A DNA stretch of 62,869 nucleotides, counting the filler, from an uncultured Ignavibacteriales bacterium (lineage in GTDB: Bacteria > Zixibacteria > MSB-5A5 > GN15 > JAAZOE01), in NCBI GenBank assembly GCA_964611355.1. It is 6 parts of 6 records of this genome, joined end to end, with 100 filler letters (N's around TTAATTAATTAA, not from the genome) between each part and the next. Parts side by side here need not be neighbours in the genome. Positions count along the whole stretch, not along the records: positions 53,933 to 62,869 come from CAZSYD010000074.1; 5 more parts are not named here. One strand, written 5' to 3'. The number at the start of each line of letters is the position of its first letter. The stretch's first letter is position 1. Of this stretch, positions 11,859-62,869 are shown in pieces. Position numbers and translations under genes: made by a program. The notes under the pieces are model-generated. The model did not search any database, had not been told where the DNA came from, and saw only the letters and a program-made list of their open reading frames with translations.

Positions 11859-11958
11859 NNNNNNNNNNNNNNNNNNNNNNNNNNNNNNNNNNNNNNNNNN
11901 NNTTAATTAATTAANNNNNNNNNNNNNNNNNNNNNNNNNNNNNNNNNNNNNNNNNNNN
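11859..11958. other. Artificial contig linker
   Basis: N-run/TTAATTAATTAA/N-run with stops in all six frames. Confidence 0.98.
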
Positions 11959-23720: not shown

Positions 23721-23820
23721 NNNNNNNNNNNNNNNNNNNNNNNNNNNNNNNNNNNNNNNNNNNNTTAATTAATTAANNNNNNNNNNNNNNNNNNNNNNNN
23801 NNNNNNNNNNNNNNNNNNNN
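23721..23820. other. Artificial contig linker
   Basis: N-run/TTAATTAATTAA/N-run. Confidence 0.98.
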
Positions 23821-33914: not shown

Positions 33915-34014
33915 NNNNNNNNNNNNNNNNNNNNNNNNNNNNNNNNNNNNNNNNNNNNTTAATTAATTAANNNNNNNNNNNNNNNNNNNNNNNNNNNNNN
34001 NNNNNNNNNNNNNN
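33915..34014. other. Artificial contig linker
   Basis: N-run/TTAATTAATTAA/N-run. Confidence 0.98.
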
Positions 34015-44038: not shown

Positions 44039-44138
44039 NNNNNNNNNNNNNNNNNNNNNNNNNNNNNNNNNNNNNNNNNNNNTTAATTAATTAANNNNNN
44101 NNNNNNNNNNNNNNNNNNNNNNNNNNNNNNNNNNNNNN
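44039..44138. other. Artificial contig linker
   Basis: N-run/TTAATTAATTAA/N-run. Confidence 0.98.
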
Positions 44139-53832: not shown

Positions 53833-53932
53833 NNNNNNNNNNNNNNNNNNNNNNNNNNNNNNNNNNNNNNNNNNNNTTAATTAATTAANNNNNNNNNNNN
53901 NNNNNNNNNNNNNNNNNNNNNNNNNNNNNNNN
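53833..53932. other. Artificial contig linker
   Basis: N-run/TTAATTAATTAA/N-run. Confidence 0.98.
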
Positions 53933-54034
53933 CATTCGGCGTTAGGCTATCGCCCACCGAATCGGGCCGAAGAAATCTATAACCTCAACCGCAAAACTCT
54001 CTTAAAATCGGCTTGACTAATGGGGAGCAGTACA
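53933..54034 (+). mobile_element. IS3-family element right end (transposase C-terminus plus terminal IR)
   Basis: HSALGYRPP...LKSA* (stop 54014-54016) followed by ctaatggggagcagtaCA terminus. Confidence 0.8.
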
Positions 54035-54194
54035 TAATGGTAAATTATCTGACTTACATCCCAGTCGAAACCATTTGCCTTTATGTCATCCGTACTCATA
54101 ATAGCTACTATCTAATAAATACAATAACTAATCTCGCGTATATTAATTGATATTTCGCTTTTATTCAACATTTTATACCAATTCCATTCTTCTT

Positions 54195-56327
54195 TTATCT
54201 TGCCGTAGCCAAAGCGCCCGCAAAAGTCAGCCCAATCAATATCACCAGCGACCACAAAAGCCAACTCAGGCCGATGACCGGCAAAAACATCGTTGTCGTC
54301 AGGAGAGCTCCCAGCGAAGAACCGACCAGTTCCCAGCCGTAACCGGTTCCGCGATTGGCAATCCGGCTGCCGGCGTAATAACGGTTGGTTGCACCTATAA
54401 AAAGCGTTCCCGTAGCCAGGGCCGCGACGAATAAAAAGAAAGCATAATATGGCAGGGCCGCATCCGGACTGACCGAACCATAACTTCCGATGAATATCAA
54501 CCCCGCCGCAAGGAACAATATCAGTGCGGGAAACTCGAGCGGTTTATCACCACCGACCCGCATCGAATAATATGTTCCCAGCGCAAGGCCGAGCATAAAT
54601 GAACCGATGAGTATGGCCAGTTCCGAATAAAGCGATCCGGCGGTCGATTGATAAAGGTAAAATGATACCAGTTCCAGCGATAAAGAAACCAGCCCGGCAA
54701 TAAAATAAAGAAACAGGGCGAATTGATTGGTGCGCCTGTTTTTCAAAACGGCAGCTACAAAAAACAGCGCAATCAGGGCCGGAAACAGGATTATCCATAA
54801 CGGTTGACGCAGAATAAATCCGATAATTTTGCGATCAACCGAATCGGCCAGCGAACGGTAAAGCGCCTGATAATGCGGCAGGATCGGCTTCTTCAGGCTG
54901 TTGGCAACGGCGCCGCTTTTTACGGCCAAAAGAAGCCGCTCGGTTTTTATCAAGCTCAACCGATTTGCCAGGTAATCTTCATGGATATACTGCGTCTCGA
55001 CGTTAAGCCGGTTTATGCGGGATATCAGCGTGTCATATGGCAGGTCAAGGCTTCGCCGGGACGATGCAAAAAACAGCGTCTTACTTCCCGGCCAGGTATT
55101 AACGTTGACGAAAATCCGCTCCAGCGTATTATAAAGAATCGAAAGTATCTGCTTTTTTTCGGTCGCAAGGTACCGGTCGGTATCGTAATCGACGGAAATA
55201 AACAATATACCGCCGTTTTCCAGCCGGCTCCCCGTCATGGAAAGGAACTTTTCGGTGATGTAGCGGCTCTTCTGGTAATTATTCGGCTCACCTGTGTCAA
55301 GAATAATAATATCGTACCGGTCGAAGGCGCTCCCGCCGGAAAGATAACTTACCGGATCATCGTCAATTCGCTGTCTGTTTGAAACGGAAGGAAAAAGCCG
55401 GTCAAACAGACCGTTTAGCGATTCTCTCGGATCAAGAGCGGTAAGATCCAAATTCAGGGAGCTGGCGAGGTCAAAGACGCCAAACTCCGCCCGGCCGACA
55501 AAAAGTATCCTTTTCGCCTCCGGATGATACAAAAGGGGTGGGATTACGAGGTTCTCAATCGTTTCGCGATCGGGATAAACCGCGTCGACGGTATTGTCGG
55601 TCATAAGGACAATGCTCTCGTCACGCTTCAGGATCGTCTGATGCGAGTAAGGAGTATCGAACGAGGCCGCGATATCGTATGAATCGTATTTGATCGAATC
55701 GAGATGCCCGTCAAGAGAGGGTATTGCCATGATAATTGCGATAATCGTAAGCGCGGCAACTATCCCGGCCGGTATGTCGTAACGCTTATTCGAAAATGCA
55801 ACGATTGAAGCAATAGTAACAACGCTCAGTATCAATGCCAATCCCAATGATGATATCAGTTCTCCGGCCGTCAGGGTAATGATCAGGCCGCCGGCAAAAG
55901 CGCCGATTCCCTCGAAAAGATAAACGGTTCCAATTGATCGAGTCGGGTCTGTTTGTCCTTTCTGCGCAATAGCCGGGAACAACCAGCCGGAAATTATCCC
56001 GACCGGACACATGGCCAGAATTGACAGAACAGCCGCCTTTGTAAACGGAATAATCTCGCCGACTATATCGGTAAACGCCAGAGGCGACAGCCTGACCAGA
56101 ATTATCATAACCGGCAGAAGAACGGCCCCCAGTATAAAAAGTAGCCGATCACCCGGCTTTCGGCAACGCCCGCCGACAAAAGCTCCCAGCGCGACCGATA
56201 AAAGCCAGCCGAAAAGAGCCGTGCCGATAAAAAACTCATCACCATTCAGGGAAGATATCAGTTCCCGTAGAAGGAGAACCTGACCGCCGACCGAAAAGAG
56301 GCCGAGCAAAAATCCCGATCGTCTCAT
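54195..56327 (-). CDS. Polytopic membrane protein with a central spermidine-synthase-like domain
   Basis: GQVLLLRE...GDEF and SLELV...GSLY TM blocks on either side of FDTPY, HPEAKRILFVG, YDIIILD, LENGGIL. Confidence 0.8.
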   Translation of the reverse strand: MRRSGFLLGLFSVGGQVLLLRELISSLNGDEFFIGTALFGWLLSVALGAFVGGRCRKPGDRLLFILGAVLLPVMIILVRLSPLAFTDIVGEIIPFTKAAVLSILAMCPVGIISGWLFPAIAQKGQTDPTRSIGTVYLFEGIGAFAGGLIITLTAGELISSLGLALILSVVTIASIVAFSNKRYDIPAGIVAALTIIAIIMAIPSLDGHLDSIKYDSYDIAASFDTPYSHQTILKRDESIVLMTDNTVDAVYPDRETIENLVIPPLLYHPEAKRILFVGRAEFGVFDLASSLNLDLTALDPRESLNGLFDRLFPSVSNRQRIDDDPVSYLSGGSAFDRYDIIILDTGEPNNYQKSRYITEKFLSMTGSRLENGGILFISVDYDTDRYLATEKKQILSILYNTLERIFVNVNTWPGSKTLFFASSRRSLDLPYDTLISRINRLNVETQYIHEDYLANRLSLIKTERLLLAVKSGAVANSLKKPILPHYQALYRSLADSVDRKIIGFILRQPLWIILFPALIALFFVAAVLKNRRTNQFALFLYFIAGLVSLSLELVSFYLYQSTAGSLYSELAILIGSFMLGLALGTYYSMRVGGDKPLEFPALILFLAAGLIFIGSYGSVSPDAALPYYAFFLFVAALATGTLFIGATNRYYAGSRIANRGTGYGWELVGSSLGALLTTTMFLPVIGLSWLLWSLVILIGLTFAGALATAR

Positions 56328-57467
56328 TTAAGTAAATCGTCCCGGAATTTCCCGATTACAGAATTTGCAACGATTACCTTTGAGATTGTTTTGATAAATT
56401 TGATACCCGCGCCGCTCAATTAAGATTTTGCCGCATCCCGGACAGTAAGTCGATTCGGCCGGGTGACCCGGAAGATTGCCCAGATAGACATATTTCAGTC
56501 CTTCGGCCCGGCTGATTTGGTGCGCCCGCTCAAGAGTTTTCTGCGGCGTCGGCGGGAGATTTCTCAAAAGATACTGGGGATGAAAGCGCGAAAAGTGAAC
56601 CGGAACATCGCTTCCGAGATTGGTTTTCACCCACCGGGCCAGTTCTTTGAATTCGTCATCGGTGTCGTTGAGCGTCGGGATCACCAGGTAAACAATTTCC
56701 AGCCAGACGCCCGACTTTTTGATCTGCACAAGACGATCAAGGACCGGTTTCAATTCTCCGTCAACATAATCGCGATAGTAATTCTCGCGGATGGCCTTAA
56801 GGTCAACCTTGACGGCGTCAAGGTGTCCCAGAAGATCAGTTAGCGGCTCGGACTCGATATACCCGCCGGTTATCATGACCGACCTGATGTTATGTTTATG
56901 CCCCAATTCGGCGGTATCATACATATATTCGTAAAAAACAACCGGCTCCGAATAGGTGTAGGCGATAGTGGGAATATTTCTGGATTGGCAGATGTCGACG
57001 ATCTCTCGAGGGGGAAGATCGATATTATCGGTTTGCTCCGGGCGCGACTGGGAAATATCCCAATTCTGACAACACTTGCAGTTGACGTTACAACCGGCGG
57101 TAGCCAGCGAAAAAGCGGTCGTACCCGGATAAAAATGAAACAGCGGTTTTTTTTCAATCGGGTCGATATTGAGGGCGCAGGGCAGGCCATAGACGAGAGT
57201 ATAATAAATATCTTTCCGGTTTTCGCGCACCCCGCAGTAACCTCGTTCGAGGTCTGTTATCAGGCAGTGCCGGGGGCAGAGGCCGCATTCAATTCCGCCG
57301 GTTTCAAGTTTGGTGTAATAGCGAGCCTCGACCGACGAAAGTTCCTTGGCGAATTCAAAGGCGCAGGCGTTTTGCAGTCCTCCAAGAACATCCTGCCAGT
57401 AATTCGAACCGGCCGCGGCAGCCGCTGCGCCGCACCCGACACATTTAATAAATCTTCGCCTGTCCAT
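56328..57467 (-). CDS. amrS: AmmeMemoRadiSam radical SAM enzyme with Tat signal
   Basis: MDRRRFIK twin-Arg leader; CGLCPRHC, GYCGVREN, IDPIEKKPLFHF, GCNVNCKCCQNWDISQ, AYTYSEP, HFSRFHP, YVYLGN, TYCPGC. Confidence 0.92.
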   Translation of the reverse strand: MDRRRFIKCVGCGAAAAAAGSNYWQDVLGGLQNACAFEFAKELSSVEARYYTKLETGGIECGLCPRHCLITDLERGYCGVRENRKDIYYTLVYGLPCALNIDPIEKKPLFHFYPGTTAFSLATAGCNVNCKCCQNWDISQSRPEQTDNIDLPPREIVDICQSRNIPTIAYTYSEPVVFYEYMYDTAELGHKHNIRSVMITGGYIESEPLTDLLGHLDAVKVDLKAIRENYYRDYVDGELKPVLDRLVQIKKSGVWLEIVYLVIPTLNDTDDEFKELARWVKTNLGSDVPVHFSRFHPQYLLRNLPPTPQKTLERAHQISRAEGLKYVYLGNLPGHPAESTYCPGCGKILIERRGYQIYQNNLKGNRCKFCNREIPGRFT

Positions 57468-58387
57468 CAGAAAAGCTCCCGGGACACGCCCCGTTCACGA
57501 CCCTTTTCATTAACTTTTACGACCCGAAGGTCAATCCTGTTTATATCGGCTTCGCCAAGGCCGATTTTCTGCGCCGAATCGAGATATTTAACCGGCCGGC
57601 CGACTTTAGCCAGCGGCGGTCGCCCGTTTTTGGCGCGCAGATGCTCCAATATTTGAAGCGCAACTCGGTCGGCCGCTACCGGGTCGTTCGAAATAATTAA
57701 ACCATTATAATAATCGAGCGAACGACTGTCAAAGCCGGGGCCGTTATCATATTGGACTCGGGCGGCATCGGTTATGGTCAACCGGTGTTTGTCTTTTATC
57801 GGCGCCAGGTTATTGATATCTGCCGCGTACGGATCGCAGTTGTTGCCGTGATACTTGTTGGGGTTATTCACGGCTCCAAACATGTTTTTCATCCCGGCCG
57901 ACAGTCCTGCGACGGAATGATCTTTCAGAACCGGCAGGTTTATGCTGTGATCGACCATGCGGGTCAGGATTCGAGTCACCAGTGAACCGACCTTTCCTGA
58001 ATTGTAAAAGTCACGGCTGTAACCGACGCCGCTGGTGTCGGTGCCGAGGCAGCGTCTCCCGAATGAGGAAGCATTCAGCTTATATCCGGCGTTTTTTAGT
58101 TCCCGGTTGCTTCGTTCCCAGATGATAATATCGTTTTCCTCTATCCCGGCCACTTTTATCAAAAGCTCGGTCAAAGCGTCCGCCAGAGGCTTGAACGTCG
58201 GGTTAAAGCTGGCCAGGCAATTGGTCTTTATACCTACTGCCCCTTTGGGGAACAGGGACTTAAGAAACAGCTTTGGGTCGCCGCCGATAAATATCTTTAA
58301 GCCGGTTTCCAGCAGAAACCGGTATTGGTCCTGATCGAGGAATTTCCCCGGATTTCCGGAAAGCTTTGACACCGCGACAATACTCAT
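57467..58387 (-). CDS. DUF362 domain protein
   Basis: VGIKTN, IIIWER, INLPVLKDHSVAGLSAGMKNMFG, DPVAAD; stop overlaps the amrS start. Confidence 0.85.
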   Translation of the reverse strand: MSIVAVSKLSGNPGKFLDQDQYRFLLETGLKIFIGGDPKLFLKSLFPKGAVGIKTNCLASFNPTFKPLADALTELLIKVAGIEENDIIIWERSNRELKNAGYKLNASSFGRRCLGTDTSGVGYSRDFYNSGKVGSLVTRILTRMVDHSINLPVLKDHSVAGLSAGMKNMFGAVNNPNKYHGNNCDPYAADINNLAPIKDKHRLTITDAARVQYDNGPGFDSRSLDYYNGLIISNDPVAADRVALQILEHLRAKNGRPPLAKVGRPVKYLDSAQKIGLGEADINRIDLRVVKVNEKGRERGVSRELF

Positions 58388-58435
58388 ATATATAATATAC
58401 AAAAACGACGCGTAAAACCGCCAAGCCTTTTTATC

Positions 58436-58464
58436 TTGACTGACCGGATACGGCGGCATATCAT
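58436..58464 (+). promoter_or_regulatory. Sigma70-type promoter of the amrB-amrA fusion
   Basis: TTGACT-N17-TATCAT. Confidence 0.6.
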
Positions 58465-58481
58465 AAAGACAGGTAGGGCTC

Positions 58482-59954
58482 ATGAAAAAGACAGCATGGT
58501 CTGTTATCGTAACAATCATTTGTATAATCTGCATTATGGATTGCCACGCCGATACAGATAAGGCCGAAATTATCCGGGAACCTGCCGTGGCCGGGTTCTT
58601 TTACCCCGCCGACGGGGAAGAGTTGCAAACCGTCGTAGATAAGCACCTCGACAATGTTGTCGATTTGCCACGGATTAACGGCCAAATAATCGCCCTGATC
58701 GCTCCCCATGCGGGGCTGGTCTATTCCGGGCAGATCGCCGCTTATAGTTATAAAACCCTGCAGAATTCCGGCGTTAATAAGGTTATTCTCATTGGTCCGT
58801 CGCATCGGTTTCCGTTCGAGGGCATCTCGGTTTTCGGGCCGGGCGTCCGGTGGCGCACGCCGCTGGGAATGATTGATTGCGACGATGAGTTCTGCGAGCA
58901 GTTTATCAGGCAGAATCAAAGAATAGATATTATCCCCCAGGCTCATGAGCAGGAACACTGCCTTGAAGTGCAGCTTCCCTATCTTCAAACCGTTCTCGGT
59001 GATTTCAGCATCGTTCCGGCTATAATGGGCCGGCCCGCCGTGGAGACCGTTAATCTTCTGGCCGATGCCCTGACTTCACTGGAGTTTGACAGTCAGACAA
59101 TCATGATCGCTTCCACCGACTGGCAACACTATCACCCCGCGTCCGTCGGATGGCCGATGGATTCGCTTGGCATCGAGTGCCTTAAAAGCCTTAATGTTGA
59201 TCTCTTGCAGAAAAAGCTCGCCGAAGGAAAAGTCCAGGCCTGCGGCGGCGGTTCGGTCGTAGCCGTCATGAAAGCAGCTATTGCCCACGGAGCCAACCGG
59301 GTAAAAATACTAAAATACGGCGATTCCGGCGACATTACCGGCGATAAAAGCTCGGTGGTCAGCTATATCGCGGCGGTTATCTACCGGGATAAAAAGGCGG
59401 AACTTCCGGAAAAAGCCGACCTGTCTGAGGCCGATAAGGAAAAACTTCTGAAAATCGCCCGCCGGTCCATCGAGACATTTCTAAAGACCAGACAAGCCCC
59501 GGAATTTGACGTCCCGCAAAATCTTAAAGAACCGGGAGCGGCGTTTGTCACCCTGGAGAAACAAGGCCGGTTGCGCGGTTGTATCGGATATACCGAGGCC
59601 GTCGATCCCTTATACGAAACGGTATCGCGCTGTGCAATTCAGGCGGCGGTCGCCGACCCCCGCTTCCCACCCGTTAAGTACGATGAAATGGCCGATATTC
59701 ACATCGAAATTTCCGTGCTGACGCCGCTTCAACAAGTCAAATCTTTCGATGAAATAGAAGTAGGCCGGGACGGCCTGATGATCTTCAAAGGCAACAATCG
59801 CGGACTGCTGCTGCCGCAGGTGGCGGTTGAATACGGCTGGGACAGGGAAGAATTTCTAAAACAAACCTGTCGCAAAGCAGGGCTTACCCGGGACGCCTAT
59901 AAATCGGACGACGCCAAAATCTACAAATTCCAGGCGATTATATTCGGCGAATAA
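58482..59954 (+). CDS. amrB: AmmeMemoRadiSam protein B (Memo) fused to protein A (AMMECR1), with signal peptide
   Basis: REPAVAGFFYP, APHAGLVYSG, GPSH, EHCLEVQLPYLQ, STDWQHY, ACG; then AFVTL, LRGCIG, DPRFPP, EISVLT, GLLLPQV. Confidence 0.92.
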   Translation: MKKTAWSVIVTIICIICIMDCHADTDKAEIIREPAVAGFFYPADGEELQTVVDKHLDNVVDLPRINGQIIALIAPHAGLVYSGQIAAYSYKTLQNSGVNKVILIGPSHRFPFEGISVFGPGVRWRTPLGMIDCDDEFCEQFIRQNQRIDIIPQAHEQEHCLEVQLPYLQTVLGDFSIVPAIMGRPAVETVNLLADALTSLEFDSQTIMIASTDWQHYHPASVGWPMDSLGIECLKSLNVDLLQKKLAEGKVQACGGGSVVAVMKAAIAHGANRVKILKYGDSGDITGDKSSVVSYIAAVIYRDKKAELPEKADLSEADKEKLLKIARRSIETFLKTRQAPEFDVPQNLKEPGAAFVTLEKQGRLRGCIGYTEAVDPLYETVSRCAIQAAVADPRFPPVKYDEMADIHIEISVLTPLQQVKSFDEIEVGRDGLMIFKGNNRGLLLPQVAVEYGWDREEFLKQTCRKAGLTRDAYKSDDAKIYKFQAIIFGE

Positions 59955-59992
59955 TCATAACTCTGCCGTAATCAATAAATGAATTGCAGGCG

Positions 59993-60029
59993 GGCGTTCC
60001 GATCCGCACTGGCGGAGAGAAACCCGACA
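59993..60029 (+). repeat. REP-like palindromic repeat, copy 4
   Basis: ggcgttccgatccgc-actggc-ggagagaaacccgaca. Confidence 0.75.
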
Positions 60030-60119
60030 AGTCCAACGGGCTCCAGCTTTTCAACATTTATCCGACATATAGTATGTCCACATAGTCTTTCTATAACGAC
60101 TTTGAAGAAGGCTCTATAT

Positions 60120-60935
60120 ATGAAGAAAATTTATTTCACCGCAGCCATTGCCATCCTGATCGCCTCGATGATAATAATCAACTGCAGCGACGATAAAGGG
60201 GCCAATAACGGTTCGGGTTCCATCATAACCGGCGATACCACGGAAACGATTATCGCCGATCACCAGGCTGTGGCTGAATTTTCCGATATACCGGCTTCGG
60301 TTATTGAAACCACAGGGGACAGTCTTAATATCTATTACGTGCATACCTCGCACGGCAGCCAAATTATGACCGGCCTTGATATGCTTGAGACGGAAGACAG
60401 TACTTATGACCCCCCATACTTCTATGAGAGGGGCGATGATCTCGGCCATAACGGAGATACTTCCTGGGTTCCCCATACGCGCACTTATCTGGACGGTCAT
60501 CCTGAGTGTAATGTCGCCATGTTTTCCTGGTGCGGCGGCGCCTCCGATAACACCGAAGAAGGAATCAATATCTACTTGAATATGACCGACAGCCTTGAAC
60601 AGGACTATCCCGATGTCGTTTTCATTTACATGACCGGTCATCTGGATGGAACCGGCATCGACGGCAATCTATATATTCGCAACAACCAGATTCACGCTTA
60701 TTGCTCAGATCACGAAAAGATTCTTTTTGATTTTGCGGATATCGAAAGTTATGATCCCGACGGCAATTATTACCCCGATGAGAGCGACGGTTGCGGCTGG
60801 TGCTCCGACTGGTGCGCCGAAAACATCTGCCCCTCGTGCGGCTCATGCGCTCATTCGCATTGCTTTAACTGCTATTTAAAGGGCAAAGCGTTCTGGTGGC
60901 TGATGGCGCGGATCAACGGTTGGGACGGCACGTAA
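60120..60935 (+). CDS. Lipoprotein, SGNH-like; paralog of 21026-22012 without the dockerin
   Basis: MKKIYF...IIINC lipoprotein leader; near-identical core YVHTSHGSQIMTGL...CGSCAHSHCFNCYLKGKAFWW. Confidence 0.82.
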   Translation: MKKIYFTAAIAILIASMIIINCSDDKGANNGSGSIITGDTTETIIADHQAVAEFSDIPASVIETTGDSLNIYYVHTSHGSQIMTGLDMLETEDSTYDPPYFYERGDDLGHNGDTSWVPHTRTYLDGHPECNVAMFSWCGGASDNTEEGINIYLNMTDSLEQDYPDVVFIYMTGHLDGTGIDGNLYIRNNQIHAYCSDHEKILFDFADIESYDPDGNYYPDESDGCGWCSDWCAENICPSCGSCAHSHCFNCYLKGKAFWWLMARINGWDGT

Positions 60936-60991
60936 GGCGTCAGTCATTTCGGTATTGTTTGAGAAGTTGCGCTTCAAACCATCGTTATCCA

Positions 60992-62668
60992 TTAGTCGGA
61001 ATCTATAAACCACTCCCCGGCAATTCGCTCGGTGACGGCAATTATTTCGCGGTCTTTATCGTTCAGGGCTCCTCTTGCAATCAGCGTATCAACGGCCTTA
61101 TGCAGCACGACCATCTTGTTTTGAACCGGAATCAGGGCCGGATAGTATTCATTGTTAAAAAACATCCGGAACCTTCTGCGTTGACGGTCATCTTCATAGA
61201 GGCGAGCAATCTCCGATTCCAGTTCAGAGCCGCTCAACTTCTCCAGTTCCTCCTTGGGAGAAACCATGAGCCTGCTCGTGTTCTCAAGATCGGTATTGCA
61301 CTTGAACGTCATCTGCCAGCATTCGACCATGCCGAGCGAATTGACCGTCAGGACAGACGCCGCAATCCGGCTGTTTTCCGAATCGGCGCTTACTCCCTTC
61401 ATGAATGGAATGAAATAATTATCGGTAATGGCTCCGAAAGCGCTGACGCCTCCGGCAAATGGGTCATCAAGGATATCGGCCATGGTAAAGTAGGGTTTGC
61501 GCTCAAAACGGGCGTCCTGGATGAGCATAAATTCGTCCTCGGTAAAATGAAATCTCTCTTTCCATTTGGCTTCCGAACTGAGGTCCGAACGGGTCAGTGA
61601 CGACTGACTGGTCAGCATACCGATAGCCTCCCCGCCCCGCCAGACCAAAGGCAGAACCCCGACGGCCCATTCGGCGGAACCGCCGATCTCACCAATCATT
61701 GAACACAGGCCGCGTTGGTCGGGGAATTTCAGCCCGTCCATACCAAGGACAATGGCCGGCATCAGATCGCCGTCCTTATCGAACGGCGTGGCTACCCCAG
61801 CCTTATTCAAAATATCCATGGCCGGGTAATGACGCGGCCGATCTAAAAAAAAGGCGCTCAACCTGTCGATACCGGAAAAACCATAAGCTTCGGCAATAAT
61901 CTTCGCCGCTTCCGGAAGATTCGTTTCGCGAGGATTGAATTTCTCGAAACAGGCGCTGGCCATCCACCGTTGAACATAAATATCGGGAAGGTGTCTTTTT
62001 ACGTTCGATTCCGTGACAAACAAAGCCGTCAGGCTGGAATGAATTCCCCTGATCGACTTGGTAGTCCCGTCAATAACGTCGTTGCCCATCGACAGCAGGG
62101 TAACGTTACGCGAGGCGCTGAGCCCATAGTCGGCCCGATGTTTGTCCTTGGCGAAAACCGCACCGACAGCGATGGTCGGATTGCCGCCCGCCTCCTTGCC
62201 CGGTTTGACGCGGACACCTTCGGTAATGGCCGACTCGATGATGACTTCTTCGCCTATCGGCAGCGTCTCCGTGGTCGTCTGCAGGATATCGGCCATGATT
62301 TGCGCCGAGGTGCGGTCGTTAGCTCTTTTCAAACGATTGGCAAGGTCTTTGGTTTGTTGTTCTTTCGGGTATCTATTGAGACTGTCCCGGCCGTGCAGGG
62401 CGACAGCAATAGCGGATAGCGCGGCCGAAAGAATAACCGACTGCCGCAACTGGCGATTGCGCAATGTTCCCAGGTTGGACTGCTGATTGATCTGATCGCT
62501 GAGAGTGATAATACTGCACGAATCCAGAGTTATGTTATAATTGCTTAGTACCGCCTTGTGGCGGTGATTGAATTCAAGTATACGATCCCGCTCAAACAGC
62601 CATTTGTTTTCATTCCCGCTGTAGGAAAGCCTTTGTTCGGCGATATCATAACGCAGTTTGTTGTCCAT
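60992..62668 (-). CDS. Class II fructose-1,6-bisphosphatase (GlpX)-like protein with N- and C-terminal extensions
   Basis: TEG, NDVIDGT, LPDIY, LDRPRH, DGDL, EIGGSAE, GAITD align with GlpX motifs. Confidence 0.7.
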   Translation of the reverse strand: MDNKLRYDIAEQRLSYSGNENKWLFERDRILEFNHRHKAVLSNYNITLDSCSIITLSDQINQQSNLGTLRNRQLRQSVILSAALSAIAVALHGRDSLNRYPKEQQTKDLANRLKRANDRTSAQIMADILQTTTETLPIGEEVIIESAITEGVRVKPGKEAGGNPTIAVGAVFAKDKHRADYGLSASRNVTLLSMGNDVIDGTTKSIRGIHSSLTALFVTESNVKRHLPDIYVQRWMASACFEKFNPRETNLPEAAKIIAEAYGFSGIDRLSAFFLDRPRHYPAMDILNKAGVATPFDKDGDLMPAIVLGMDGLKFPDQRGLCSMIGEIGGSAEWAVGVLPLVWRGGEAIGMLTSQSSLTRSDLSSEAKWKERFHFTEDEFMLIQDARFERKPYFTMADILDDPFAGGVSAFGAITDNYFIPFMKGVSADSENSRIAASVLTVNSLGMVECWQMTFKCNTDLENTSRLMVSPKEELEKLSGSELESEIARLYEDDRQRRRFRMFFNNEYYPALIPVQNKMVVLHKAVDTLIARGALNDKDREIIAVTERIAGEWFIDSD

Positions 62669-62869
62669 GCGCCCTCCGCATAATGGGATATTAAAAAAGG
62701 TCCAACATCTCGGCTTTCATTTTCGAACAGACATTATACGGGATGTTATCCGGTTTTCAAGTACTAACTTTATTATGAATTGTTCGCTGTAAAAAAATCA
62801 AAATTTTTCTACGGAATCAGAATCTCTTCTTGGTCGGGAACTGAAAGGCGGGGATGGTCAACCGAATTG

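Follow-up and report, generated by a model that had tools for sequence, protein, structure and literature searches.

The gene cluster at positions 54195–59954 of the DNA analysed here (a 62,869-nucleotide stretch, referred to hereafter as the window, from an uncultured bacterium of the phylum Zixibacteria, assembly GCA_964611355.1) probably encodes an envelope-directed version of the AmmeMemoRadiSam system, as judged by sequence comparison and structure prediction. The cluster comprises AmrS, a radical S-adenosylmethionine (SAM) enzyme with a leader of the twin-arginine translocation (Tat) type; a leaderless DUF362 protein; a membrane protein of the major facilitator superfamily (MFS) fold with an inserted spermidine synthase (SpeE)-like domain; and a divergently encoded Memo-AMMECR1 fusion with a signal-peptide-like leader. 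In the working that we propose, AmrS would fold and gain its Fe-S clusters in the cytoplasm before crossing the membrane via Tat, with DUF362 sitting over its active site as a hitchhiker or, alternatively, as a substrate or adaptor; the Memo-AMMECR1 fusion would follow through Sec, and the MFS protein would most plausibly carry a small cationic metabolite, either supplying the external enzymes or taking up what they make, SAM being the obvious candidate for its cargo. Comparison and prediction speak to the signals and their conservation, to synteny and co-occurrence, and to the folds, the topology and the AmrS–DUF362 contact; from these we infer export itself, the cargo of the transporter, the source of reductant and the reaction. 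The features of the cluster (aa, amino acids; nt, nucleotides; TM, transmembrane helix; AF2, AlphaFold) are as follows.

54195..56327, minus strand: membrane protein, 710 aa, MFS-fold transporter with inserted spermidine-synthase-fold domain (open reading frame, AF2 model, fold searches)
55689..56327, minus strand: TM1–TM7 of the membrane protein, aa 1–213, MFS N-lobe plus extra helix TM7 (AF2 helices, loop charge)
54840..55688, minus strand: spermidine-synthase-fold domain of the membrane protein, aa 214–496, predicted periplasmic, loop GRAEFG replacing GGGDG (alignment to 1uir)
54195..54839, minus strand: TM8–TM14 of the membrane protein, aa 497–710 plus stop, extra helix TM8 plus MFS C-lobe (AF2 helices, loop charge)
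56328..57467, minus strand: AmrS, 379 aa, starting MDRRRFIKCVGCGAAAAAAG, radical SAM enzyme with twin-arginine leader (TIGR04337)
57360..57467, minus strand: Tat-type leader of AmrS, aa 1–36 (TIGR01409, orthologue conservation)
57467..58387, minus strand: DUF362 protein, 306 aa from Met50 of a long frame, LarA-like fold, leaderless (PF04015, orthologue starts)
58388..58481, no strand: divergent spacer between DUF362 and Memo-AMMECR1, 94 nt (sequence)
58482..59954, plus strand: Memo-AMMECR1 (AmrB-AmrA) fusion, 490 aa, starting MKKTAWSVIVTIICIICIMDCHA (Memo and AMMECR1 models)
58482..58550, plus strand: signal-peptide-like leader of Memo-AMMECR1, aa 1–23, MKKTAWSVIVTIICIICIMDCHA (hydropathy, syntenic orthologues)

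The reading frames, including the divergent Memo-AMMECR1 fusion, are as the initial annotation described them, and the family models agree. All lie within a single contig (C74; window 53933–62869, 8937 nt) which ends ~260 nt beyond the membrane gene, so that the window DNA before 53933 does not neighbour the cluster; the closest named relatives are Zixibacteria metagenome-assembled genomes (MAGs). The translational coupling claimed for DUF362, amrS and the membrane gene can be read directly at the two junctions, TGATG between DUF362 and AmrS (a 1-nt overlap) and TAAATG between AmrS and the membrane gene (a 0-nt gap). The Memo-AMMECR1 fusion lies ~1 kb from amrS in the opposite orientation, with a AGGTAGGG stretch immediately 5′ of its ATG, in the 94-nt spacer.

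AmrS matches TIGR04337 over residues 48–378 (373.2 bits, cut-off 220), and the cysteines of its radical SAM motif CX3CX2C (C126/C130/C133) are invariant in 53 sequences. Ahead of this domain, residues 2–25 match the Tat signal model TIGR01409 (19.3 bits, cut-off 16.7), the leader being built of DRRRFIK, 17 uncharged residues (C9–Q25) and then NACA before the mature domain; the Tat call comes from this match and from motif conservation. Among the 53 AmrS orthologues drawn from syntenic loci, every sequence has R3 and R4, and 90% or more have each of F6, A34 and A36. Of the 120 closest homologues of AmrS, 118 have the twin arginine (RR); the other two open with MKC, a point six residues inside the leader, which would fit a start annotated too far downstream. 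In the deeper Zixibacteria operons the leader sequence is unrelated, yet RRxF[LF]K followed by a hydrophobic stretch occurs in all nine (9/9), and each of the 20 Thermodesulfobacteriota loci fetched has a leader (19 RR, 1 KR; a Myxococcota locus of 74% G+C, L075, was excluded from the leader counts). The Tat machinery is itself encoded in the genome (TatC, 202 bits; TatA, by the TatA/B/E model, 72.1 bits).

The Memo-AMMECR1 fusion matches Memo (204.9 bits, aa 33–298) and AMMECR1 (193.7 bits, aa 323–488) in Pfam, as well as TIGR04336 (AmrB; 246 bits, cut-off 26) and TIGR04335 (AmrA; 191.8 bits, cut-off 99), and both the AMMECR1 motif LRGCIG and the Memo motif APHAG are present. Its leader reaches a best 10-residue hydropathy of 3.55, against 0.8 in a leaderless paralogue. 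Sec leaders were called by a hydropathy heuristic of our own (which asks, directly ahead of the conserved R-x-P-A-V-A-G start of the Memo domain, for a start codon, basic n-region, small residues and an h-region reaching 2.1 or more), by which 48 of 50 syntenic Memo-AMMECR1 genes carry a signal-peptide-like leader. The leader sequences drift freely among orthologues, as signal peptides do. Five deeper-branching genomes have one Memo-AMMECR1 fusion each, all five with a lipoprotein-like (lipobox-like) leader; in four of these genomes the leader-bearing fusion is the sole Memo gene, and the fifth adds a leaderless Memo frame of 315 aa. A leader is likewise found on all four of the Thermodesulfobacteriota fusions. 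The Tat leader on AmrS and the Sec-type leader on Memo-AMMECR1, both proposed in the initial annotation, thus hold up, and with RR in 118/120 and a Memo leader in 48/50 both are conserved in orthologues. We rejected a start at the inner Met19 of the Memo frame, which lacks a purine-rich stretch before it and would shorten a leader that the orthologues keep in full. The divergent position is occupied, in a complete Zixibacteria chromosome, by a frame of 829 aa (L018:3432-5921, minus strand) that joins a truncated Memo (aa 54–259) to an OMP_b-brl_4 outer-membrane beta-barrel, being either a true fusion or a frame merged by error.

The same genome holds leaderless paralogues of both proteins: a 332-aa AmrS with 38% identity from residue 47 of the cluster AmrS onward, and a Memo-AMMECR1 of 493 aa, 41% identical from residue 31 of the cluster fusion. 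As the paralogues align from these residues, the leaders (N-terminal extensions of 47 and 30 residues, respectively) are add-ons to complete domains. Such add-ons might be membrane anchors or vestiges, the enzymes then working at the cytoplasmic face with the RR segment tethering AmrS to a chaperone or to the membrane and the membrane protein acting as a scaffold. NarG, which has a vestigial Tat motif and is not translocated, offers a parallel; radical SAM enzymes are otherwise known only where SAM and reductant are present, and a family member, P0283, has a non-Tat hydrophobic N-terminus before a Memo-AMMECR1-AmrS fusion. We nevertheless consider anchoring quite improbable: the AmrS leader retains all parts of a Tat signal (the invariant RR, the uncharged h-region and A-x-A in at least 90%), and Memo-AMMECR1 independently keeps Sec or lipoprotein leaders in three lineages.

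DUF362 (PF04015, 65.1 bits, cut-off 24) most likely starts at Met50 of its longest frame (57467–58534), that is at window 58387 (MSIVAVSKL), a start that keeps it clear of the Memo gene and leaves the 94-nt divergent spacer. Its orthologues begin MS[KR]VVVVK without a leader, several with a stop 0–5 codons upstream; an upstream start with a hydrophobic N-terminus was rejected in view of these orthologue starts and upstream stops, and the lack of a leader on DUF362, already remarked in the initial annotation, stands. At one locus (L097), DUF362 directly upstream of a Tat-type AmrS carries an RR leader of its own. The AF2 model (predicted local distance difference test, pLDDT, 93.9) resembles LarA-family racemases in Foldseek (7s91, E 3.8e-06, TMq 0.52). 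Given this LarA-like fold, the Fe-S or redox partnership first suggested for DUF362 is unlikely, and the accompanying suggestion of a target, widened to "target or adaptor", fits better. The genome, 96.36% complete, yielded no larC (PF01969), so that use of the nickel-pincer cofactor by DUF362 is also unlikely.

A complex model of mature AmrS with DUF362 reaches an ipSAE of 0.67, the best of three controls reaching 0.00 (116 of the 157 solved complexes attain the ipSAE mark, as do 2 of the 215 mismatched pairs; since our own alignments were used, these counts apply only roughly). Runs of the model agree in at least 86% of contacts, with a partner pLDDT of at least 90; we know of no solved complex of this kind. 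On the DUF362 side the contacts are invariant residues of the cleft (within 174–180, N175-P176-N177-K178 and H180; the H157 region at 157–159, D117 and G122-Y123), and on the AmrS side residues 71–79 (invariant D72–G79), N129 inside CX3CX2C, and 140–145 (invariant Q140–E144). The conserved cleft of DUF362 is thus predicted to dock on the AmrS active site; the model speaks for a likeness of fit rather than for binding as such, and its geometry would accommodate DUF362 equally as a hitchhiker or as a substrate or adaptor. Since DUF362 is leaderless and predicted to bind AmrS, its co-export by hitchhiking, raised in the initial annotation, is plausible.

The docked model also invites the main rival reading, in which the radical step is cytoplasmic: AmrS would modify DUF362, or a ligand in its LarA-like cleft, and the complex would then be exported by Tat with AmrS mainly a signal-bearing carrier, leaving Memo-AMMECR1 and the outward domain of the membrane protein to act on the exported product. 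This scheme has the merit of needing neither SAM nor reductant outside the cytoplasm, and it accords with a leaderless DUF362 whose gene overlaps the AmrS start in 45/45 loci, with a cleft modelled beside the cluster motif (0.67 against a best control of 0.00), and with the resemblance of AmrS to activases that act on protein substrates (matches to the pyruvate formate-lyase activating enzyme family, PFL-AE; the next-best radical SAM relatives of AmrS are PflA-type activases, TIGR02493, at 49.2 bits with a cut-off of 231.75). We judge it unlikely all the same, for it leaves the MFS transporter and its outward SAM-fold domain without a function, although that protein accompanies the Tat-type AmrS in 160/175 genomes; DUF362 is missing in L011 and from most Thermodesulfobacteriota loci (it is upstream in 5/20), and in several relatives AmrS is fused to domains linked to transmembrane electron transfer (FMN_bind, DsbD_2 and Fer4_5), which suggests electrons supplied outside.

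The 710-aa membrane protein matches no Pfam family at E≤0.01, neither MFS nor PF01564, and in NCBIfam it has only weak SpeE matches (27.4, 20.7 and 21.2 bits) far below the cut-offs, among them TIGR00417 (21.2 bits, cut-off 249.55) and NF002956 (a weak match over residues 20–278). NF037959, which we take to be the NCBI model for "fused MFS/spermidine synthase", is not among the NCBIfam matches at E≤0.01, its place in that library being unconfirmed. An AF2 model built from 36 homologues (mean pLDDT 89.4, predicted TM-score, pTM, 0.89) lays the protein out as seven helices (2–26, 32–54, 60–80, 95–121, 128–153, 160–179, 181–213), a soluble domain (~residues 214–496) and seven further helices (509–533, 536–562, 567–591, 598–618, 621–650, 661–685, 687–709). 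The helices of this model, across residues 1–710, form an MFS fold, matching VMAT2 (9kqa) at Z 25.9 (326 residues aligned, root-mean-square deviation, rmsd, 3.6), with further matches to SotB (6kki, Z 24.2) and MdfA (4zp0, Z 19.9) over ~330 aligned residues. In the model, then, a 6+6 MFS body carries the SpeE-fold domain on two additional helices inserted into its central loop.

The spermidine-synthase-like domain proposed in the initial annotation is clear at the level of fold. Including the N-terminal beta domain of SpeE, it matches 1uir in Foldseek (E 8.4e-11, 292 columns, TMt 0.69), by structure alignment (Z 22.0, 271 aligned, rmsd 2.7) and by profile alignment (E 3.7e-09). Relative to SpeE, E281, D299 and D324 are retained; the second Gly of the SAM loop is Arg279, so that GGG(D/E)G reads GRAEFG in this clade (FVGRAEFG, residues 276–283), and where SpeE has the catalytic Asp of DxxDP, the family consensus has Asn and this copy has Asp343. 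The degenerate loop reported earlier is thus present, with the degeneracy limited to this clade: deeper-branching operon partners keep GGG[VLMI]GG, DYVE[LI]DP and NLPDP and score 65–88 bits against PF01564 in 8/8 scanned (hydropathy gives seven transmembrane-like peaks ahead of the domain in 7/8 of these and six in 1/8). As these deeper orthologues retain GGGxGG and match PF01564, the altered loop is a local derivation, and the sequences suggest an ancestral partner capable of binding an adenosyl ligand.

Both termini and the central loop of MFS proteins are cytoplasmic, so that the two extra helices would place the SpeE-fold domain outside. The charge pattern of the loops agrees with this placement on the outer (periplasmic) face: mean Lys+Arg counts over the family are 1.9, 2.7, 1.7 and 2.1 for inward loops of the N-half (outward 1.0 and 0.1) and 3.9, 2.0, 2.8 and 1.0 for inward loops of the C-half (outward 0.0 and 0.6), summing to ~18 for the predicted-inside loops and ~1.7 for those outside. 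The topology check that the initial annotation had called for, drawing on model, MFS fold and loop charge, predicts a domain that faces outward, and this prediction also counts against the leaders being anchors. Amine/cation antiporters are the structures closest to the MFS body, and its helices contain conserved acidic residues, two of them invariant (E139, E552) and two retained in 90% or more of sequences (E22, E666). Both observations are consistent with a small cationic cargo and not specific to it.

In a sample of 65 Zixibacteria-type loci the cluster is held together closely. AmrS lies directly upstream of the membrane gene in 64/64 loci having upstream DNA, with a gap of −4 to +4 nt in 44/45; DUF362 is upstream of AmrS in 50/54, its stop overlapping the AmrS start wherever scored (45/45), and Memo-AMMECR1 is divergent in 42/45. 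Among 285 genomes of the phylum, the membrane protein was called in 175 (E≤1e-10) and the Tat-type AmrS in 163 (E≤1e-115, chosen to exclude the ~38%-identical leaderless paralogues): 160 genomes have both genes, 15 the membrane gene only, 3 the Tat-type AmrS only and 107 neither. Because relatedness makes the genomes non-independent, we give these figures as plain counts. Contig-end truncation accounts for two or more of the 15 membrane-only genomes (L076, L077), and the per-family counts of the two genes differ by at most 3. Of 13 deeper loci, ten have the operon, one could not be assessed and two have the membrane gene alone; these two belong to one family and have a Tat-type AmrS elsewhere in their genome. 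Phylogenetic profiling, suggested in the initial annotation as a check, thus ties the membrane protein to Tat-type AmrS (160/175 genomes, 64/64 loci), and neither of the two outcomes that the initial annotation would have taken as refutation was observed.

The membrane protein might still be a polyamine-related transporter or synthase that is an operon-mate of AmrS without functional link. Outside the phylum there are true PF01564 homologues without an adjacent AmrS gene (L073, 97.1 bits; L075, 53.6 bits), a weaker homologue (L074) likewise lacks one, the best structural matches of the transmembrane body are amine/cation transporters, and in L073 (Thermodesulfobacteriota; L073:6880-12292) the homologue lies between genes for aspartate-semialdehyde dehydrogenase and an epimerase/aminotransferase, a neighbourhood that suggests polyamine metabolism. 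Against these stand the start–stop coupling to AmrS in 44/45 loci and adjacency in 64/64, the joint gain and loss of both genes across 20 families of the phylum, and the recurrence of the link in a second phylum (4/20 loci, three gene orders), which together leave an unlinked polyamine protein very improbable.

That second phylum is the Thermodesulfobacteriota, in which the parts of the cluster occur in several gene orders, the link between membrane protein and AmrS in three of them. Around the 20 Tat-type AmrS loci, the membrane partner is within 7 kb in 4, DUF362 directly upstream in 5, Memo-AMMECR1 present in 4 and a NapH-like polyferredoxin in 4. More widely, the RR motif with a hydrophobic stretch is found in 33 of the 150 best 50%-identity representatives of the AmrS family, whose named members include some from Armatimonadota and Planctomycetota. 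In a quick maximum-likelihood tree of 141 AmrS core domains (eleven rows with short or split cores, including intein-bearing ones, were left out), all 29 Tat-labelled rows fall inside one clade of 44 (SH-aLRT 91), the rest of which is made up of 8 N-terminal fusions, 3 forms with a transmembrane or signal segment, 3 plain forms and 1 C-terminal fusion; the leaderless AmrS paralogue of our genome is among the other 97 rows. This Tat-type clade is a lead and not a settled phylogeny, the representatives having been picked by likeness to the Tat-type query and the support being moderate. The gathering of 29/29 RR-labelled rows with signal-peptide, TM-anchor and FMN_bind forms is a further point against anchors or vestiges. 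Two family members, P0335 and P0350, have an intein with a LAGLIDADG domain inside the radical SAM domain.

Redox modules recur around these enzymes. AmrS-family fusions bring in FMN_bind, DsbD_2 and Fer4_5 (NapH/NosR-type) modules (P0248, P0254, P0261, P0267, P0274, P0275, P0290), and in two FMN_bind-AmrS forms a single N-terminal transmembrane segment, with none between the domains, would put FMN_bind and AmrS on the same side of the membrane. In the Zixibacteria-type loci a paralogous DUF362 with an RR leader of its own, followed by a 563-aa NapH-like polyferredoxin (Fer4_5, several 4Fe-4S motifs and an internal RRK-hydrophobic segment), is convergent to the membrane gene; the pair occurs in 24 of 36 loci with at least 4.5 kb of downstream DNA (for example L015:11371-14964 and L040:10142-12885), and some loci have a DUF6599 lipoprotein after the NapH-like gene. 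In our genome the pair stands at the edge of a small contig (C93, 3.9 kb). The Tat-leader DUF362 paralogue and the NapH-like protein offer a possible electron route.

With these modules in view, a bolder form of the export reading can be put forward tentatively, as a possibility that we do not ourselves expect to be borne out: that catalysis by the radical SAM enzyme takes place in the periplasm, after Tat has exported it, already folded, along with its LarA-like adaptor. The MFS exporter would then feed it SAM via the outward SAM-fold domain, and neighbouring outward redox modules would supply electrons (Tat-DUF362 and the NapH-like protein in this genome; in other members of the clade, fusions with FMN_bind, DsbD_2 and Fer4_5). 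Several observations weigh against envelope direction itself. To our knowledge, neither SAM nor a low-potential reductant occurs outside the cytoplasm. Binding of SAM by this clade's copy of the SpeE-fold domain is doubtful, given the GRAEFG loop, the lost Pfam match and the unconserved catalytic Asp position. The AmrS–DUF362 model would fit an enzyme–substrate contact in the cytoplasm equally well, and DUF362 is partial in 3/54 loci and absent in 1/54. Membrane homologues without an adjacent AmrS gene are found in one family of the phylum (L079, L082) and outside it (L073, L074, L075; the last has an AmrS-like match ~2 kb off on the other strand). The Sec call depends on our own heuristic, two of the 50 genes having failed the motif search and gone unscored, and P0283 joins a Sec-type N-terminus to its Memo-AMMECR1-AmrS fusion, which is hard to reconcile with Sec export of an Fe-S enzyme. 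On balance we retain envelope direction as the probable character of the locus.

The remainder of the contig and the other parts of the window touch the cluster less closely. Downstream of Memo-AMMECR1 are a 318-aa frame, whose inner start MKKIYFTAAIAILIASMIIINC resembles a lipoprotein leader, and a gene for a 558-aa protein with a weak match to GlpX-type fructose-bisphosphatase (35.1 bits); neither has a counterpart among 68 related loci, and both were rejected as cluster parts on that ground. The window is made up of six MAG contigs (C66, C67, C70, C71, C72 and C74) joined by paired N runs, so that genes flanking an N run are not neighbours. The leaderless paralogues of AmrS and Memo-AMMECR1 lie on separate contigs and do not adjoin one another; the AmrS paralogue adjoins a heptosyltransferase/GmhB-like gene (a name read from the translation only).

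59979–60935, plus strand: 318-aa frame
60992–62668, minus strand: 558-aa protein, weakly GlpX-like
11859–11958, 23721–23820, 33915–34014, 44039–44138 and 53833–53932: N runs
L002:1495-2493 (G000 C19), strand not stated: leaderless AmrS paralogue
L004:898-2379 (G000 C29), strand not stated: leaderless Memo-AMMECR1 paralogue

Radical SAM enzymes are generally assumed to work only in compartments with SAM and a low-potential reductant. A conserved Tat leader, export signals on the partners and an outward SAM-fold transporter together make a testable case for an exception, in several little-studied phyla. Should periplasmic turnover prove true, it would be the first extracytoplasmic radical SAM pathway, would bring the first bacterial SAM exporter and would mark out a deep branch, spanning several phyla, of a family to which the human proteins MEMO1 and AMMECR1 are related. 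Two new handles are also gained on the Memo/AMMECR1/radical SAM system, which has no assigned function: a DUF362 protein predicted on the active site and a transporter with assayable cargo. The conserved leaders need explaining even if the export reading is wrong. A periplasmic role is described for the HxS system, whose radical SAM step is here assumed to be cytoplasmic. We found no literature report of a radical SAM enzyme as a Tat substrate, of AmrS being exported, or of radical SAM enzymes acting outside the cytoplasm, with the proviso that Burroughs et al. 2019 may bear on the matter.

Compared with known systems, the cluster is closest to canonical AmmeMemoRadiSam, whose three models (TIGR04335 AmrA, TIGR04336 AmrB and TIGR04337 AmrS) are all matched here above their cut-offs and whose function, as here, is uncharacterised. 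It differs in adding Tat and Sec leaders to proteins that are leaderless in the classical form, in adding conserved DUF362 and MFS-SpeE genes to the unit, and in standing alongside leaderless classical gene copies kept by the same genome; DUF362, MFS-SpeE and leaders thus define a variant of a known, uncharacterised system. PMC7159879, citing Burroughs et al. 2019, uses the name "Memo-Ammecr1 systems".

Tat-exported Fe-S enzymes with signal-less partners include DmsAB, the small and large subunits of [NiFe] hydrogenases and the NapG/NrfC-type ferredoxins. Like such hitchhiker systems, the cluster pairs a cofactor protein bearing a Tat leader with a leaderless neighbour predicted to bind it; unlike the known Tat Fe-S enzymes, its passenger is a radical SAM enzyme. 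The hitchhiker principle of Tat export is stated in PMC10924467, where the one mention of radical SAM concerns a neighbouring gene.

The membrane-bound SpeE-like proteins (PRK03612/NF002956) share with our membrane protein an N-terminal transmembrane region followed by a SpeE-fold domain; the protein here scores far below their cut-offs, has the loop GRAEFG and a second transmembrane bundle after the domain, and its gene is locked to Tat-type AmrS. DUF362 and LarA/DUF2088 share Pfam clan CL0471, according to PMC11770544; our DUF362 model partially resembles the LarA nickel-pincer-nucleotide racemases (malate, lactate; TMt 0.33–0.41), and no larC (PF01969) was found in the genome. PflA activases (TIGR02493), finally, the next-best relatives of AmrS, act on a loop of a partner protein; AmrS differs from them in scoring far below the cut-off, in having no glycyl radical enzyme nearby and in a predicted partner that is LarA-like.

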